Positions 27,670 to 46,746 of a DNA stretch of 64,000 nt are shown piece after piece. The position numbers and the translations under genes are program-made. Source of the stretch: a phage. The DNA lies in the sequence record PZ452583.1. One strand, given 5' to 3'. The notes beneath the pieces were generated by a model that was not told the DNA's origin, did not search any database, and saw only the letters and a program-made list of their open reading frames with translations. The stretch's first letter is position 1, and the number at the start of each line of letters is the position of its first letter.

Positions 27670-28683
27670 TCATTTATAATAACTTCGATGGTTTTCAAGA
27701 TAGACCTTCTCAAGGAAGTCATCCCAGAAACCCATGTCTACTGTTTTAGGCATACCATTCTTAGAAGCGTCAGTAGATGCTGCTTCTACTTGATCGACCA
27801 CATCTTCCAAAAACTCTTGAACTGTTTTAAATGGATGTTTACCCAACTTCACGTCGAGAATAAATGGAGCATCTTGGAGTGGATAAACCAAGTCACCAGT
27901 TTTGTAAATTTCCAATAGTTGAAGTCCACCACGACAAGCATGACTCAGAGCTTTCCAGTCAATACCTTCATTGGCTTCGGCCTTACGAGCACGTTCACCA
28001 TATTCAGCATCTAATTTGTTCAGTGACTGCTTAAGCTCAATAAGAGAAAGCGTTGTCTGATATTTACGACCCAACACAGTGTAGAACGTTTGTGGGCCTG
28101 TTTTCTCATGATTATGGAACACCCATTCACAGAATTCGTTTTCTGGAAGACGATGCTTAATATCTTCAACTTTAGTGCGACGCTGCTTAATGGAACCGTC
28201 TTCTTGGTAATCAACCCATTGCTCAGGGATTTGATTAACTACTTTCAATACATCACGTAATGCAGCCAAACGAGAACCCTTGACACCGTATTTAGAAGCT
28301 TGCTTGCGGACATATCCTAAATATGATTTCATGTTAGTCGTATAAAAACGAGAACGGTTGTCTTGAATAAACTTCCACACATCAGGCAAATCTGATTTAA
28401 CTACTAGTTCAGGTGGAGTGTGAAGCATATCTAATGCTACGGTTTCACCATCTGCTGCTAATTTAAAGAAATATTTAAGACTGTATAGTTCATGGTCAAT
28501 ATCATCTTTAGTGTTTTTAGATGATGTGTTGTTAGTGTTTTTACTCATGTGCTCTTTGACATTTCCGATAAGAATATCGCGAGCAGGAGGAACAAAGATT
28601 TCTTTAAAATCTACATCAGATTCTGGGGTAGAAGTTCCATAAAGATGACTACCAAAATAGCTTTTCATTACTGTTTTCATCAT
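27670..28683 (-). CDS. Predicted nucleotidyltransferase-fold protein
   Basis: ORF track 337 aa; N-terminal GS-x10-DVD pattern (YFGSHLYGTSTPESDVDF) typical of Pol-beta-type nucleotidyltransferases. Confidence 0.55.
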   Translation of the reverse strand: MMKTVMKSYFGSHLYGTSTPESDVDFKEIFVPPARDILIGNVKEHMSKNTNNTSSKNTKDDIDHELYSLKYFFKLAADGETVALDMLHTPPELVVKSDLPDVWKFIQDNRSRFYTTNMKSYLGYVRKQASKYGVKGSRLAALRDVLKVVNQIPEQWVDYQEDGSIKQRRTKVEDIKHRLPENEFCEWVFHNHEKTGPQTFYTVLGRKYQTTLSLIELKQSLNKLDAEYGERARKAEANEGIDWKALSHACRGGLQLLEIYKTGDLVYPLQDAPFILDVKLGKHPFKTVQEFLEDVVDQVEAASTDASKNGMPKTVDMGFWDDFLEKVYLENHRSYYK

Positions 28684-29141
28684 TCAGCCTTATATTCAAT
28701 AACAGGACATACTTTAGCTTTACGAGCTTTTAAAAATTCAACGATAACCGATTTCTTGGGTTGAATAGGAGGTAAACCTTTATACGCCCTATCAATATTT
28801 TCTACGTGTAAAGCATAATCCTTTTTCCATTTATAATCTTTATATTTTTCACGCAAATGTGCAGGAATAACAAATGAACCGATAATAAGTAAAACAACCA
28901 AAAGCGCAAGTATAAATGCTGATGGAAGCAAAGTCCATAAACTACCAAAAATAAGCCAACGTTGTAGGCTTTCTGCACAAATAATTGTTAGCCCTACGAG
29001 TATAGCACATCCAAAAATAGAAACGAAAAATGTAGGAATGGCAATAGACCAAAAATATGCGCATAGTGTCTTAGGTCGTTGCCATTCATCGTTAAACAAT
29101 TTGAATAATTTATAGTGCCAAGAGTTTTCATTAATAATCAT
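28680..29141 (-). CDS. Hypothetical membrane protein
   Basis: ORF track 153 aa; multiple hydrophobic segments. Confidence 0.55.
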   Translation of the reverse strand: MIINENSWHYKLFKLFNDEWQRPKTLCAYFWSIAIPTFFVSIFGCAILVGLTIICAESLQRWLIFGSLWTLLPSAFILALLVVLLIIGSFVIPAHLREKYKDYKWKKDYALHVENIDRAYKGLPPIQPKKSVIVEFLKARKAKVCPVIEYKAE

Positions 29142-29143
29142 AA

Positions 29144-29665
29144 TTATCCTCTCATTGAAGGCGTAACAGTTGTTAAATACTTAATCATAGCTTCAGCTTC
29201 TGATTTTGATAATGAAATTTCTCCATTGTTTTGACGAATAGAAATAAAATCCGGATGACGGTCACCACCAGCTTTTAAAACACACATATAAGTATCAACT
29301 TCATCTTCAATATTTGAAATGATTGAAGCAGTTCCACATGAATGCGGTTTTTGATAAATCAATGCAGCTTTTCTTCCGCCATTTGACTGTTCATAAACTT
29401 TTAATACATCAAACAAATCACTTCTTTTATCAATAGCTAAAATGTTATTTTCATCTTCAATGTTAAATCCTTCGGATACTTCATAAAGTGTCACCCATAA
29501 ATCGCCAATATCAATAACAGCGTTCACTTTTCCATGACTTTCAAGAGCATGACAAATTTTCTTGATTTCGTCATAACTCATTTTAATAATATCATCTCCT
29601 TGAATAAGAAAGATGTCATTTTTAAATTCAACACGAATTAAACCACTTCCACTTGAAATAAACAT
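29144..29665 (-). CDS. Hypothetical protein (paralog-like to 29672..30226)
   Basis: ORF track 173 aa; C-terminus EAEAMIKYLTTVTPSM resembles the neighbour's EAIALKTYLDSVIPTM. Confidence 0.55.
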   Translation of the reverse strand: MFISSGSGLIRVEFKNDIFLIQGDDIIKMSYDEIKKICHALESHGKVNAVIDIGDLWVTLYEVSEGFNIEDENNILAIDKRSDLFDVLKVYEQSNGGRKAALIYQKPHSCGTASIISNIEDEVDTYMCVLKAGGDRHPDFISIRQNNGEISLSKSEAEAMIKYLTTVTPSMRG

Positions 29666-42876: not shown

Positions 42877-43010
42877 CGTTTTGTGAAAAAAATTTTTAAA
42901 AAGTTTTGGGGAATTCTAGGGCAGGGAGGGGAAATCAAAGGATAGGATAATATATTATAAAGGGTAGAAACTAAATGATGTCTAGAGAGGCCTGGAAAGG
43001 CCTAGATACC

Positions 43011-43038
43011 AAAAAGCCCCAACCTTTCGGCTAGGGCT
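43011..43038 (-). terminator. Intrinsic terminator (long stem, GAAA tetraloop, U5), copy A
   Basis: Minus strand AGCCCUAGCCGAAAGGUUGGGGCUUUUU immediately downstream of the 43046..43519 gene. Confidence 0.6.
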
Positions 43039-43045
43039 AAGAATG

Positions 43046-43519
43046 TTATTTGATTTGTTTAGCAGACCAAATGCGGTCTTTAATAATTTTTTGGATGTCT
43101 TCAACATACTCAAGAGAGTGAGCATGTGGGTTATCTTTGAAACTATAAGCACGAGCTAGCTTTTGGCCTTCAGTTTTGATTACTAAAAGCTCTTTAAGGA
43201 TAGCTTCATATTTGGAGATAATTCCTTTAACAATATTTTTCTCTTGTGCGACTTTAGGATCTGCTTTAGGAGCAGGTTTACCTGAAGCCTTTGCAAAAGC
43301 AGCGCCAGTAGCAACTAAACTTTTCCAGGCCATACTAACAGCATTCCCCGTAAATCCTTCTGCTTTCATGTCGCGAGCAAATTGGAATCGTGATTCATCA
43401 GAAGCATCTTTATAGGAATATTTACCCGCTGCAATGGCTGCTTTTGCGACAGCTTGAATTTCGGTGCTAGACGCTTCATTTAACACCGCTTCATTTAAAA
43501 ATTGAGCATATGATTTCAT
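43046..43519 (-). CDS. Internal-protein-like (capsid-targeting sequence) protein, late-promoter driven
   Basis: ORF track 157 aa; N-terminus MKSYAQFLNEA fits the CTS pattern; TATAAATA late-promoter octamer on the minus strand at plus 43556..43563. Confidence 0.6.
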   Translation of the reverse strand: MKSYAQFLNEAVLNEASSTEIQAVAKAAIAAGKYSYKDASDESRFQFARDMKAEGFTGNAVSMAWKSLVATGAAFAKASGKPAPKADPKVAQEKNIVKGIISKYEAILKELLVIKTEGQKLARAYSFKDNPHAHSLEYVEDIQKIIKDRIWSAKQIK

Positions 43520-43555
43520 CTTATTTCCTGTTTTAATTTGTAGATTTAATATACT

Positions 43556-43563
43556 TATTTATA
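43556..43563 (-). promoter_or_regulatory. Late-promoter octamer TATAAATA upstream of the internal-protein-like gene
   Basis: Plus-strand tatttata at 43556..43563, about 37 nt upstream of the ATG at 43519. Confidence 0.5.
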
Positions 43564-43565
43564 CT

Positions 43566-43593
43566 AAAAAGCCCCAACCTTTCGGCTGGGGCT
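43566..43593 (-). terminator. Intrinsic terminator (long stem, GAAA tetraloop, U5), copy B
   Basis: Minus strand AGCCCCAGCCGAAAGGUUGGGGCUUUUU; near-identical to copy A at 43011..43038. Confidence 0.6.
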
Positions 43594-43904
43594 AAGCCTT
43601 GCGGCAACCTTGTCGGGGTTCCACCTGCTAAGGCAAGTGTTTGTACGAAACGCCGGGATTCGAACCCGGTTATCAAGCAGTTGACGCTACTCAATATTTT
43701 TAAAAGGCCATATCTCGACCATATCCGAACGTTCCGTCAAAAACGCTACTCGGCTTACGGCAAAGATATTTCCTCGAATCGATAATTCGGTGCGCCGTTT
43801 CTGCTGTGATATAAGGGGACATTAACAAAACATAAAGATTTATTAATGCCAGTCCTTAAACAGGGAACATCAGTCCGACGACTTACCGGTAGCGACCCGG
43901 TTTC
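43594..43904 (-). ncRNA. Candidate structured non-coding RNA region downstream of the tRNA operon (contains a tRNA-like T-arm)
   Basis: About 310 nt with no ORF of 60 aa or more on either strand, between the 43905..44255 gene and terminator copy B; minus strand contains CCGGGUUCGAAUCCCGG (plus 43651..43667). No acceptor stem or CCA found, so not a canonical tRNA. Confidence 0.25.
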
Positions 43905-44255
43905 TTAATATTCTTTTAAAGCATCAATCTGTTCACGGCGTTTACGCCATAAATCAATTGCTTCATACGCAGATTCAGCATTTCGAATTAGCCGGCATTT
44001 ATGTAAAGACTTATGATTTTGATATTGTGTAGATAATGGAATTGTATCTAAAAGGTCTTTACGATCAAAGTATTCGTAACCATCTAAACCAAATGAACGA
44101 TTTTTGAGAAATTGCCAATGGCCAAATTCATTTTCAACATAAACATAATCTGCATGCTGATAAAGTAAATTAATTACACGTTCAGAAATAACAGTATCAT
44201 TATGATTAAAATAGAATGTTAAATCATGAACTACTAAATAAACATTACCTTTCAT
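43905..44255 (-). CDS. Hypothetical protein
   Basis: ORF track 116 aa; ATG 44255 preceded by GAGGAAAA, 18 nt downstream of tRNA-Arg. Confidence 0.55.
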   Translation of the reverse strand: MKGNVYLVVHDLTFYFNHNDTVISERVINLLYQHADYVYVENEFGHWQFLKNRSFGLDGYEYFDRKDLLDTIPLSTQYQNHKSLHKCRLIRNAESAYEAIDLWRKRREQIDALKEY

Positions 44256-44273
44256 ATTTTCCTCACTTATAAT

Positions 44274-44349
44274 TGGTCGAGGCAGTAGGGATCGAACCTA
44301 CGACCTAGGACTTAGAAGGTCCTTGCTCTTCCTTCTGAGCTATGCCCCG
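44274..44349 (-). tRNA. tRNA-Arg (anticodon UCU)
   Basis: Hand-folded cloverleaf from reverse complement: T-arm GUAGG-UUCGAUC-CCUAC, anticodon loop CUUCUAA, encoded CCA. Confidence 0.8.
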
Positions 44350-44353
44350 TAAT

Positions 44354-44429
44354 TGGGGTGACCGATGGGAGTCGAACCCATGACTACGAGAATCACAATC
44401 TCGAGTTCTACCAACTGAACTACGGCCAC
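44354..44429 (-). tRNA. tRNA-His (anticodon GUG)
   Basis: Hand-folded: acceptor GUGGCCG/CGGUCAC, D-stem GUUC/GAAC, anticodon stem CGAGA/UCUCG with loop UUGUGAU, T-arm AUGGG-UUCGACU-CCCAU, discriminator C, CCA; no encoded G-1. Confidence 0.65.
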
Positions 44430-44543
44430 ATTAATATCTACTCCAACAATCATGATGTCTTCACACGAAATTAAGAGAAGAGTGATCAGTTAAACCCTTA
44501 TAATCGCGTCAAGTAGATATTAATGTGACAGTTGTCACAAATT

Positions 44544-44618
44544 TGGCGGACGTGATAGGATTCGAACCTATAACCAATCGCTTAACAGGCGATCGCTCTG
44601 CCATTGAGCTACACATCC
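44544..44618 (-). tRNA. tRNA-Asn (anticodon GUU)
   Basis: Hand-folded: acceptor GGAUGUG/CACGUCC, anticodon stem AUCGC/GCGAU with loop CUGUUAA, T-loop UUCGAAU, CCA. Confidence 0.7.
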
Positions 44619-44622
44619 AAAT

Positions 44623-44709
44623 TGGTGGGGAGTGGTGGAGTCGAACCACCCGAGTCGCAATGACAATGAATTTACAGTCCACACCGCTACCTCTACGGGA
44701 TAACTCCCC
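44623..44709 (-). tRNA. tRNA-Tyr (anticodon GUA), type II with long variable arm
   Basis: Hand-folded: acceptor GGGGAGU/ACUCCCC, anticodon loop CUGUAAA, variable arm hairpin, T-arm GGUGG-UUCGACU-CCACC, CCA; anticodon stem has two G-U pairs. Confidence 0.6.
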
Positions 44710-44721
44710 TAATTCATAATT

Positions 44722-44796
44722 TGGTGGCCCTGGGTGGAATTGAACCACCATCTGGCGATTATGAGTCGCTTGCTTGAACCTTCCAGCTACAGGGCC
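44722..44796 (-). tRNA. tRNA with CAU anticodon (Ile by analogy to T4 tRNA-Ile; Met by anticodon alone)
   Basis: Hand-folded: acceptor GGCCCUG/CAGGGCC, anticodon loop CUCAUAA, T-arm GGUGG-UUCAAUU-CCACC, CCA. Confidence 0.7.
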
Positions 44797-44797
44797 T

Positions 44798-44873
44798 TGG
44801 TGCTGATTGACGGAATCGAACCGCCGACCTTCTCATTACAAGTGAGTTGCTCTACCTACTGAGCTAAATCAGC
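44798..44873 (-). tRNA. tRNA-Thr (anticodon UGU)
   Basis: Hand-folded: acceptor GCUGAUU/AAUCAGC, D-stem GCUC/GAGC, anticodon loop CUUGUAA, T-loop UUCGAUU, CCA. Confidence 0.75.
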
Positions 44874-44878
44874 AAAAC

Positions 44879-44968
44879 TGGCGGAGGCGATAGGATTTGA
44901 ACCTATGAGTCGCCGGAGCGACTGCCGGTTTTCAAGACCGGTGCATTAAACCACTCTGCCACGCCTCC
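44879..44968 (-). tRNA. tRNA-Ser (anticodon UGA), type II
   Basis: Hand-folded: acceptor GGAGGCG/CGCCUCC, anticodon stem CCGGU/ACCGG with loop CUUGAAA, long variable arm, T-loop UUCAAAU, CCA. Confidence 0.75.
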
Positions 44969-44970
44969 AG

Positions 44971-45044
44971 TCTCCATACAAGGATTTGAACCTTGGACCT
45001 CCTGATCCCAAATCAGGCGCTCTACCAAACTGAGCTACACGGAG
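44971..45044 (-). tRNA. tRNA-Pro (anticodon UGG), CCA not encoded
   Basis: Hand-folded: anticodon stem CCUGA/UCAGG with loop UUUGGGA, T-arm CAAGG-UUCAAAU-CCUUG; 3' end abuts tRNA-Ser (Pro-Ser dimeric arrangement as in T4). Confidence 0.75.
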
Positions 45045-45054
45045 TAAATTAAAT

Positions 45055-45128
<74 letters not shown>

Positions 45129-45133
45129 AAATT

Positions 45134-45220
45134 TGGTGCGAGAAGTGGGACTCGAACCCACAAGGAAATCATTCCGCAGCATTTTAAGTGCTGTGCCTTT
45201 ACCAATTTGACCATTCTCGC
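45134..45220 (-). tRNA. tRNA-Leu (anticodon UAA), type II
   Basis: Hand-folded: acceptor GCGAGAA/UUCUCGC, anticodon stem CAGCA/UGCUG with loop CUUAAAA, long variable arm, T-arm GUGGG-UUCGAGU-CCCAC, CCA. Confidence 0.75.
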
Positions 45221-45226
45221 GTTATA

Positions 45227-45835
45227 TTATTTATTACGTGAAAAAGACTGTTCTATCAATTCTGGACACTTTCGTTCTATCCATTTTCTAGCTTTTTGTG
45301 GGCTTATACCTATTATTTTAGCAGCTTTACTAACCCATCCAAATTTAGAATAATCGATTTTAACTAATTCTTCGTAAATTTCATTAGTTAAAATCTTTTC
45401 ATTAATATTTACCAGTAAATGATATAATTTGTTATCATTAGCAATTTTAATGAATCTTTTATAGTTTCCGCCTTTACTTAAACCTAATGAAGTAATTGCA
45501 GATGATATAGTAGCCGAATTTAATAATGCGTTTAAAATTTCTTCATCACTAACATTATAACGCTTTTTATTATTTTTAATATTTTTACCAGCAAAAGTAT
45601 CAGTTTGCGAATGACAGTTTGGACATAATAATCTTAAATTTGATTTAAGATGATTTTTGTTATTTCCATCAATATGGTCTAATTGCAGAACAATATGCTT
45701 ATTTTGCCATTTTGAAATTTTACAAATTGCACACTCATATGGAAAAATATTTTCTTTTATTATTTTGTCTTTCAGCTTTCCTGTACTAAAATTTGGATGT
45801 TTTCCTTCAAAAATTTCAGCTAATTTAGTATCCAT
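45227..45835 (-). CDS. HNH homing-endonuclease-like protein (free-standing, adjacent to tRNA array)
   Basis: Track ORF 45227..45859 (TTG); supported start ATG 45835..45833 (MDTKLAEIF); HNH core LDHIDGNNKNHLKSNLRLLCPNCH with paired Cys (CAIC...CPNC). Confidence 0.7.
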   Translation of the reverse strand: MDTKLAEIFEGKHPNFSTGKLKDKIIKENIFPYECAICKISKWQNKHIVLQLDHIDGNNKNHLKSNLRLLCPNCHSQTDTFAGKNIKNNKKRYNVSDEEILNALLNSATISSAITSLGLSKGGNYKRFIKIANDNKLYHLLVNINEKILTNEIYEELVKIDYSKFGWVSKAAKIIGISPQKARKWIERKCPELIEQSFSRNK

Positions 45836-45934
45836 AATATGATTCCCAATTATTAACAAAGGCTCTCAAATAAGAACCCTTGATGATAGAGGGTATTAAT
45901 CAGTGCGGTATGAGTTAATAATAACAAATAATTC

Positions 45935-46450
45935 TTAAAGCAAATCAACCATTTTAACAGTCGGCAAAACAATTTCTTCTTCGATATAAGCAAATTCTAC
46001 ATGTTCAACTACACGCAAGAAATCATATTCATAGTATTCAGAAGCATGACCAAGAATATCAATGAGGCCTTCAGATATCTTATTACCATTCACAAAGAAT
46101 AAATCAAATACACGTTCTTCATCTTCTTCGGATTTATTACCAAGGTCAACTTCTATATCAAAGACCTTTTTAATGAATTCTGGATAAAGTTGGTCTGAGA
46201 ACAGTCCTTCAACCAAATATTCATATATAAAAAGCTCTTGCTCGCTGAACAACCCATTACCACAATAACGGTCAGCTTTAGTGCTAGAATGACGACTCTT
46301 AAACTTCTTCAAAAGATATTTAAATTGTTGGAGCTCATGCTCTTCTACGCCAAACAGTGTTTTGGTTTTATAGTTATCACCATCATTTTCCCAGGTAGTG
46401 ACATCAATTACGTAACCCTTAGGAATTGTGCTGCCTAAACGAATATTCAT
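45935..46450 (-). CDS. Hypothetical protein
   Basis: ORF track 171 aa. Confidence 0.55.
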   Translation of the reverse strand: MNIRLGSTIPKGYVIDVTTWENDGDNYKTKTLFGVEEHELQQFKYLLKKFKSRHSSTKADRYCGNGLFSEQELFIYEYLVEGLFSDQLYPEFIKKVFDIEVDLGNKSEEDEERVFDLFFVNGNKISEGLIDILGHASEYYEYDFLRVVEHVEFAYIEEEIVLPTVKMVDLL

Positions 46451-46746
46451 TTGCTCACCATATTAATGTAAGTATATTCAATACATTCAAGACCCAAAGG
46501 ATTCTTGAAAATATCATATTCAAGAGGACCTTTTTCTGTTTCAATAAAGAAATCAAAATTTACTGTATTAAATTTACGGTCTTCCTTCACTAATTTAACT
46601 TGAGAAGATGAACGGTCAACATAAACCTTTTCAACTTCAAAACACGTTAAAACGCCATAATCATCAATCAAGGCTTTAGCCGCGTCTTGATCATATTTAT
46701 ATCCATTTTCAATGGATGATACTTTTGCATAAAGAATCATTATCAC
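46447..46746 (-). CDS. Hypothetical protein
   Basis: ORF track 99 aa. Confidence 0.5.
   Translation of the reverse strand: MIMILYAKVSSIENGYKYDQDAAKALIDDYGVLTCFEVEKVYVDRSSSQVKLVKEDRKFNTVNFDFFIETEKGPLEYDIFKNPLGLECIEYTYINMVSK

Follow-up and report, generated by a model that had tools for sequence, protein, structure and literature searches.

Homing genes residing in phage tRNA clusters were described as 'rarely observed' in the report on the SegB endonuclease of phage T4 (PMC2330249). According to the T4 record, segB lies between the tRNA-Arg and tRNA-Ile genes at the distal end of the tRNA array, not upstream of it. A middle promoter is located just upstream of the T4 tRNA cluster, and its transcript runs through the cluster and ends after the species I RNA (PMC2330249). 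The tRNA gene region of phage T5 harbours an HNH endonuclease, HegA (F-TflIV), for which PMC2330249 and PMC5714182 cite Akulenko et al. (2004); this enzyme is listed together with the Mob proteins among the group 1 His-Me finger nucleases (PMC5714182). HNH genes have also been associated with viral tRNA clusters and proposed to reshuffle their tRNA content (PMC5966550; PMC6409571).

In this study, we analysed a stretch of 64,000 nucleotides of phage DNA (sequence record PZ452583.1; the whole stretch is referred to here as the window), which is from a Tequatrovirus, a T4-like phage. A gene for an HNH-type nuclease occupies the head of its tRNA array, at the position of a tRNA-Gln gene. The gene and its family are already known: relatives in RefSeq bear the name "HNH endonuclease", and the RefSeq record of phage ACG-C40 notes 'similar to T5 H-N-H endonuclease TflIV'. 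A literature search returned no paper describing this HNH gene or the loss of tRNA-Gln. The main interest of the locus lies in a clean prediction of the target of the enzyme and in a possible family-wide preference for the boundaries of class II tRNA genes.

The HNH gene at the head of the tRNA array

The open reading frame (ORF) is real. A first-pass annotation, made from the sequence of the window, had placed it at 45227..45859, which is its extent on the minus strand when counted from a TTG codon at 45859; the frame itself is retained here and its start is moved. This TTG falls within a tRNA leader that is conserved in phages without the gene. The first ATG of the frame is at 45835 and gives an ORF of 609 nt and 202 amino acids, and an ATG start with a 609-nt coding sequence is annotated in all four of the RefSeq relatives that were checked. 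Judged from these comparisons, ATG 45835 and not TTG 45859 is likely to be the start. As claimed in the same annotation, the gene adjoins the tRNA array, its stop codon occupying 45227-45229 and tRNA-Leu(taa) beginning at 45220. The features of the locus are as follows.

45227..45835, minus strand: HNH endonuclease ORF of 202 amino acids, with ATG at 45835 and stop codon TAA at 45227-45229 (PHROG 14736; RefSeq relatives).
44274..45220, minus strand: T2-type array of ten tRNA genes (Leu, Gly, Pro, Ser, Thr, Met, Tyr, Asn, His, Arg), without tRNA-Gln and without segB (ARAGORN).
45134..45220, minus strand: tRNA-Leu(taa), which in the absence of tRNA-Gln heads the array as it is transcribed (ARAGORN, Rfam).
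45842..45848, minus strand: TGGGAAT, 7 nt left over from the start of the displaced tRNA-Gln, shortly before the ATG (alignment; junction table of 15 phages).
45836..45841, minus strand: CATATT, six cassette-specific bases between the tRNA-Gln remnant and the ATG, forming the left junction (alignment; junction table).
45221..45226, minus strand: TATAAC, a six-base spacer that separates the stop codon from the 5' end of tRNA-Leu and forms the right junction (alignment; junction table).
45918..45944, minus strand: middle-promoter-like element consisting of a MotA box TTTGCTTTA (45936-45944), a 12-nt spacer and a -10 element TATTAT (45918-45923), read from the alignment and a leader table.
45858..45881, minus strand: hairpin in the leader, its stem invariant and its 5-nt loop region at 45867-45871 hypervariable.
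43789-43905, minus strand: rnaD, 87% identical to T4 rnaD (blastn), distal in the transcription unit that includes the array.
43644-43782, minus strand: rnaC, 98% identical to T4 rnaC (blastn), likewise distal in that unit.

The window was aligned with T4 and with ESh17, a phage with a tRNA array otherwise the same as that of the window. In this alignment the HNH cassette stands precisely where the other two phages have tRNA-Gln: with a length of 621 nt, it substitutes for the tRNA gene from position 8 onwards. The distance between the same two anchors is 621 nt in nine carrier loci and in the window and 67 nt in six non-carriers. No copy of tRNA-Gln was found elsewhere in the window, either by ARAGORN or by blastn with the T4 tRNA-Gln gene, and blastn with T4 tRNA-Ile likewise found no copy of that gene in the window. 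A scan of positions 43000-46500 against Rfam returned only the tRNAs and chance matches below threshold, with no remnant of tRNA-Gln or other RNA inside the cassette. Within the otherwise tight array, a spacer of 114 nt between tRNA-His and tRNA-Asn (44430-44543) contains neither a tRNA nor an Rfam match.

The MotA box and the -10 element are common to the window and T4, in which they lie upstream of tRNA-Gln; the promoter call is based on the reading of the MotA box and on the literature. A scan of the ORF region for consensus promoters and terminators gave nothing above shuffled expectation. A Shine-Dalgarno-like element, GGGA, is contained in the tRNA-Gln remnant, 8 nt before the ATG. The 5' leader was folded in search of a hairpin of the kind that sequesters the start in other T4 homing genes, and the folding was not better than that of shuffled sequences (z=-0.84). 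The loop of the leader hairpin occurs in seven forms among 15 Tequatroviruses, while identity over the remainder of the 100-nt leader is 96-100%. At the distal end, a terminator-like hairpin follows rnaC and rnaD at 43570-43593; short ORFs that had been listed at 43644-43905 were rejected as spurious, this region being rnaC/rnaD. In such an arrangement the HNH gene would be the first cistron of the tRNA operon and would be transcribed together with the tRNAs from the middle promoter, and cleavage by RNase P at tRNA-Leu would leave the HNH message with a 3' end 6 nt beyond its stop codon. By analogy with segB and tRNA-Arg (PMC2330249), we infer that 5' processing of tRNA-Leu would set this 3' end.

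Protein features and other homing-type genes of the array

The 202-residue protein includes the stretch ...YECAICKISKW...LQLDHIDGNNKNHLKSNLRLLCPNCHSQTDT... and an HNH core containing LDHIDGNNKNH...LLCPNCH, with cysteine pairs at C35-x2-C38 and C71-x2-C74; the core and its flanking pairs are thus present as the first-pass annotation had described them. Two regions of the protein can be delimited.

45602..45733, minus strand: HNH catalytic and zinc core, residues 35-78 (C35, C38, W43, D53, H54, G57, N66, C71, P72, N73, C74, H75 and T78).
45251..45547, minus strand: C-terminal helical part, residues 97-195, with two predicted helix-turn-helix-like (HTH-like) DNA-binding modules; it aligns with the C-terminal HTH of T5 HegA.

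In an alignment of the window protein with 67 relatives (68 aligned sequences), C35, C38, W43, H54, G57, N66, C71, P72, N73, C74, H75 and T78 are invariant and D53 is nearly so (at least 90%). These positions include the elements that define an HNH nuclease, namely the catalytic histidine in the 'DH' strand (H54), the structural asparagine (N66) and the metal-binding histidine in the following helix (H75), as well as the two CxxC pairs, which constitute a four-cysteine zinc site round a beta-beta-alpha core and are invariant throughout the 68 sequences. An AlphaFold (AF2) model calculated from the alignment of the relatives is confident (mean pLDDT of 91.6) and shows the beta-beta-alpha-metal fold. 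Among the viral structure models that match it at E<=0.001, all those that are named are HNH or NinG-type nucleases. The model has helices at residues 97-134 and 151-195, and residues 164-192 give weak matches to the Pfam families HTH_29, P22_Cro, HTH_17 and HTH_28.

Profile searches, as proposed in the first-pass annotation, place the HNH assignment clearly beyond chance. The window protein matches PHROG 14736, 'HNH endonuclease', with E=2e-123, and all but one of 14 further PHROG matches are to HNH-type nuclease families. Taken alone, it stays under the Pfam threshold for HNH (PF01844, 17.3 bits against a gathering score of 21.4; E=0.0053), and with E<=1e-3 PF01844 is matched by 31 of the 68 aligned relatives and PF13392 by 27 of the 68. 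A sequence search of the PDB gave nothing relevant, the best match (E=0.12) being to a non-HNH stretch of a Cas9 fragment. Because of the matches to PHROGs and of its relatives to Pfam, the invariant core, the matches of the AF2 model and the matches of the C-terminal part to HTH families, the protein is by sequence and fold an HNH nuclease with intact active-site residues, and its C-terminal tail is likely, on the predicted structure, to bind DNA. No GIY-YIG match was obtained in Pfam or PHROGs and no similarity to SegB was found, in agreement with the earlier view that the gene is of the HNH and not of the GIY-YIG type. Nothing places the protein in a non-nuclease zinc-finger family, and T4 segB does not encode an HNH protein homologous to it.

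The position of the gene relative to segB has to be revised. The first-pass annotation had located it where T4 carries segB and had suggested an independent invasion of the same site. The HNH gene occupies the tRNA-Gln position and T4 segB the interval between tRNA-Arg and tRNA-Ile, so that the two slots are approximately 1.2 kb apart at opposite ends of the array; moreover, both genes occur together in HY03 and pSe_SNUABM_01, which carry the HNH gene along with a SegB 95% and 82% identical, respectively, to that of T4. A third slot is used in AR1 and CM8, in which a chimeric GIY-YIG gene resembling segB replaces tRNA-Pro.

L015 (AR1) 1343-1993 and L002 (CM8) 2208-2816: SegB-like chimera, its first 99 amino acids 83% identical to T4 SegB and its C-terminus unrelated.

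The tRNA array as a whole, and not one shared site, is a hot spot for homing-type genes. The T-even array has been invaded at three or more slots, by segB (Arg/Ile), by the SegB-like chimera (tRNA-Pro) and by the HNH gene (tRNA-Gln), and each invasion costs or swaps tRNA genes, which helps to explain why near-identical phages differ in their tRNA sets. The C-terminal HTH of the chimera is 50% identical over 24 amino acids to residues 161-184 of the window HNH protein, a likeness that hints, at the sequence level, at DNA-binding modules common to the two nuclease families. The array of the window also contains a tRNA-Asn gene (44544-44618, minus strand). The tRNA-Asn gene of T2L is the preferred cleavage site of T4 SegB (PMC2330249); if this site is conserved in the window, the phage would be a target of SegB while bearing a different homing gene.

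Searches of the window by tblastn revealed no homologue of MobA, MobB, MobC, MobD, MobE, I-TevII, I-TevIII or SegB. The absence of mobD reported earlier is confirmed by this result, and in the place that mobD has in T4, between nrdC.11 and mobD.1, stand two unrelated ORFs; in neither was a nuclease recognisable by tblastn with the T4 homing genes.

28680-29141, minus strand: ORF for a hydrophobic protein of 153 amino acids, between nrdC.11 and mobD.1.
29144-29665, minus strand: ORF for a protein of 173 amino acids, in the same interval.

The alignment with T4 MobA-E, I-TevIII and SegB that had been proposed disclosed no similarity; the HNH protein is a different nuclease, homologous to none of them.

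Distribution, predicted target and alternative explanations

With a query spanning both junctions, the HNH allele was detected in 64 of the 521 records that match the flanks (12%), and in the sampled rows of the remaining records tRNA-Gln lies between the same flanks. The HNH junctions are identical in all ten loci inspected, and the cassettes of nine carriers are 98.1-99.8% identical to one another. About 100 nt upstream, the carriers fall into two contexts that cannot be aligned with each other, containing either the T4-type trna.2 or a 516-nt ORF, both of which exist with and without the cassette; downstream, the array is of the T2 type, the segB type or the CM8 type, and each of these also exists without the cassette. 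Across the local contexts compared, the distribution of the cassette is independent of the flanking backgrounds. The variable codons among nine phages comprise 11 with synonymous changes only and four with amino-acid changes, and the protein is therefore under constraint (purifying selection). Among close relatives the gene is thus a presence/absence polymorphism at one locus with constant junctions. This polymorphism, its occurrence in several flanking backgrounds and the purifying selection fit a mobile homing-type element, as the first-pass annotation had assumed. The leader and the tRNA flanks are 96-100% identical in carriers and non-carriers, and some non-carriers match the window exactly both in the 100-nt leader and in the tRNA-Leu/Gly stretch (170 nt downstream). 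Co-conversion tracts are not visible, because the flanks are conserved across all Tequatroviruses, and the mosaic distribution could also come from ordinary homologous recombination.

We consider it probable that a free-standing homing endonuclease gene resembling that of F-TflIV replaced tRNA-Gln at the head of a T4-like tRNA cluster. During mixed infection, the enzyme would nick or cut the genome of a phage that still possesses tRNA-Gln, and repair from the HNH-bearing genome would copy the cassette in and delete tRNA-Gln; carriers would be immune, their target being gone. Since the body of tRNA-Gln is the only local difference between the two alleles, a site that overlaps tRNA-Gln or the boundary between tRNA-Gln and tRNA-Leu is the most probable target. 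T4, T2 or RB-type phages with the tRNA-Gln allele are accordingly predicted to contain the target, at or close to the Gln/Leu junction. At locus L004 a 68%-identical homologue lies 14 nt after an intact tRNA-Gln, and because the homologue adjoins an intact gene, a target wholly inside tRNA-Gln is unlikely for the L004 enzyme; a site spanning the 3' end of tRNA-Gln and what follows it would fit the arrangements of both L004 and the window. The target could also lie outside tRNA-Gln, since nickases are numerous among the HNH enzymes of phages and the cleavage sites of free-standing endonucleases are often remote from the genes that encode them. If it spreads in this way, the HNH gene could be a candidate driver of marker exclusion in crosses of therapeutic or model T4-like phages.

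The region that follows the homologue at L004 was inspected separately. A stretch of 406 nt (L004 4604-5009) contains no ORF, has a G+C content of 47% vs 41% in its surroundings, and comprises an rnaD-like segment with extensive folding and no Rfam match. A tRNA-Leu remnant after this homologue was considered and rejected: the 'GCGAGA' found there precedes the rnaD-like RNA and not a tRNA-Leu.

Other explanations of the locus have to be weighed against replacement by a homing gene. The gene might have become a domesticated or resident HNH nuclease that no longer spreads by itself and has another use, such as the cutting of competitor or host DNA or recombination, its patchiness being the product of ordinary T-even recombination. 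Purifying selection would fit any useful function of this kind, and with flanks 96-100% identical in relatives normal recombination can move the cassette. On the other hand, a tRNA gene is lost wherever the cassette is carried, and the cassette lies in a dispensable region, like known homing genes (PMC2330249); the closest of its characterised relatives, from the T5 tRNA region, is listed as a homing-type endonuclease, and homing genes are classically recognised by a presence/absence pattern with a single constant junction. We therefore regard domestication as unlikely. Still less probable is a decaying relic, that is, an old invasion whose ORF is inactive and has had too little time to erode. 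The nine carriers whose cassette was read from end to end all have an ORF of full length, each of the 64 records covers the ORF completely, its catalytic and zinc residues are all intact, its variable codons are mostly synonymous (11 vs 4), and the homologues at 58-68% identity keep both length and architecture; what speaks for decay is that T4 itself has defective homing genes, mobA and I-TevIII being annotated as defective, and that the carriers are so alike (98-99.8%) that little time is sampled.

An RNA substrate would offer a direct explanation of why the family inhabits tRNA clusters, the protein then serving in the processing or quality control of neighbouring tRNA precursors; the family is indeed strongly tied to such clusters, with ORFs that end at the 5' ends of tRNAs. 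Yet all the solved or named relatives that were found are DNA nucleases or DNA-targeting HNH domains, the C-terminal modules resemble DNA-binding HTH motifs, and T4 and most of its relatives process the same tRNAs without this protein, which makes a role in RNA processing highly improbable.

The wider family and comparison with known systems

The family comprises 5,510 proteins at E<=1e-5, and homologues at 68% and 58% identity occupy the same place in more distant T4-like phages. With the family profile, 80 loci were retrieved from environmental viral contigs (L018-L097); 77 of them contain at least one tRNA and 66 three or more, and 763 of their 863 tRNAs are on the strand of the HNH gene. 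The end of the ORF falls between -40 and +20 nt of a same-strand tRNA in 29 loci. The next tRNA is Leu(taa) in 13 of these 29 and a class II tRNA (Leu, Tyr or Ser) in 23, against a background in the 80 loci of 37/863 (4%) for Leu(taa) and 184/863 (21%) for class II. Among other ORFs abutting tRNAs in the same loci, Leu(taa) is the neighbour of one in 103 (binomial 6e-11, Fisher 3e-9, the loci not being independent samples). When the set was de-replicated at 70% identity, tRNA-Leu(UAA) was still the neighbour in 12 of 23 clusters; the tRNA-Leu genes beside these ORFs are diverse, and the HNH domains concerned have a median identity of 57%. Most of the relatives abutting tRNA-Leu group together in a rough neighbour-joining tree based on 88 columns.

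In the short relatives of the 80 viral contigs (approximately 140-155 amino acids), the HNH domain is at the C-terminus. In many cases their stop codons fall within the opening bases of the tRNA gene that follows (gaps of -36 to 0), and processing by RNase P would therefore strip the stop codon from the message.

Membership of the window gene in the clade abutting tRNA-Leu was examined and rejected, as the neighbour-joining tree places it with L004 and L005; the adjacency of the window gene to tRNA-Leu may, to judge from this tree, be independent or coincidental. A tentative reading of the family, which we find possible and somewhat doubtful, is that its members are specialised tRNA-gene homers that recognise DNA at the 5' boundary of particular conserved tRNA genes and use RNase P processing to end, and perhaps to limit, their own message. 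Were this reading true, the window gene, 6 nt before tRNA-Leu(UAA), would be one more instance of it, and the family would represent a general engine that reshuffles the tRNA sets of phages. The link with class II boundaries, if it holds, would supply a target rule for a large uncharacterised group of phage HNH proteins.

T5 HegA/F-TflIV is the only characterised protein with significant similarity to the window protein (34.7% over 170 amino acids, E=1e-14 to 3e-21; profile match, E=3e-35). The alignment covers both the HNH core and the C-terminal HTH, and both genes are free-standing, lie within a phage tRNA cluster and are on the same strand as the tRNAs. HegA differs in its length of 227 amino acids, with an extra N-terminal HTH segment of about 70 amino acids that is absent from the window protein. 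The positions differ as well: hegA lies 24 nt after tRNA-Ile2, whereas the window gene precedes a tRNA, and HegA has displaced no tRNA at a site shared with the window phage.

The likeness to SegB is one of setting. Both are free-standing genes in a T-even tRNA array, and the window gene, like segB, would be transcribed with the tRNAs from a middle promoter; the segB ORF, too, ends right before a tRNA, and the spread of SegB rewrites the tRNA gene content. SegB is a GIY-YIG enzyme, however, and thus belongs to another nuclease superfamily, with no sequence similarity to the window protein, and its homing has been proven by experiment, whereas the HNH gene of the window is known from sequence. 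MobA-E and I-TevIII share with the window protein a broad superfamily (His-Me finger group 1; PMC5714182) and their free-standing occurrence in T-even phages, but no pairwise or profile similarity was found (blastp and profile E>=0.03 in a 13-sequence database), and their genomic sites are different. The reports on HNH genes in the tRNA clusters of mycobacteriophages and other viruses (PMC5966550; PMC6409571) are surveys of gene content, which do not include this gene, the replacement of tRNA-Gln or a preference for class II 5' boundaries.
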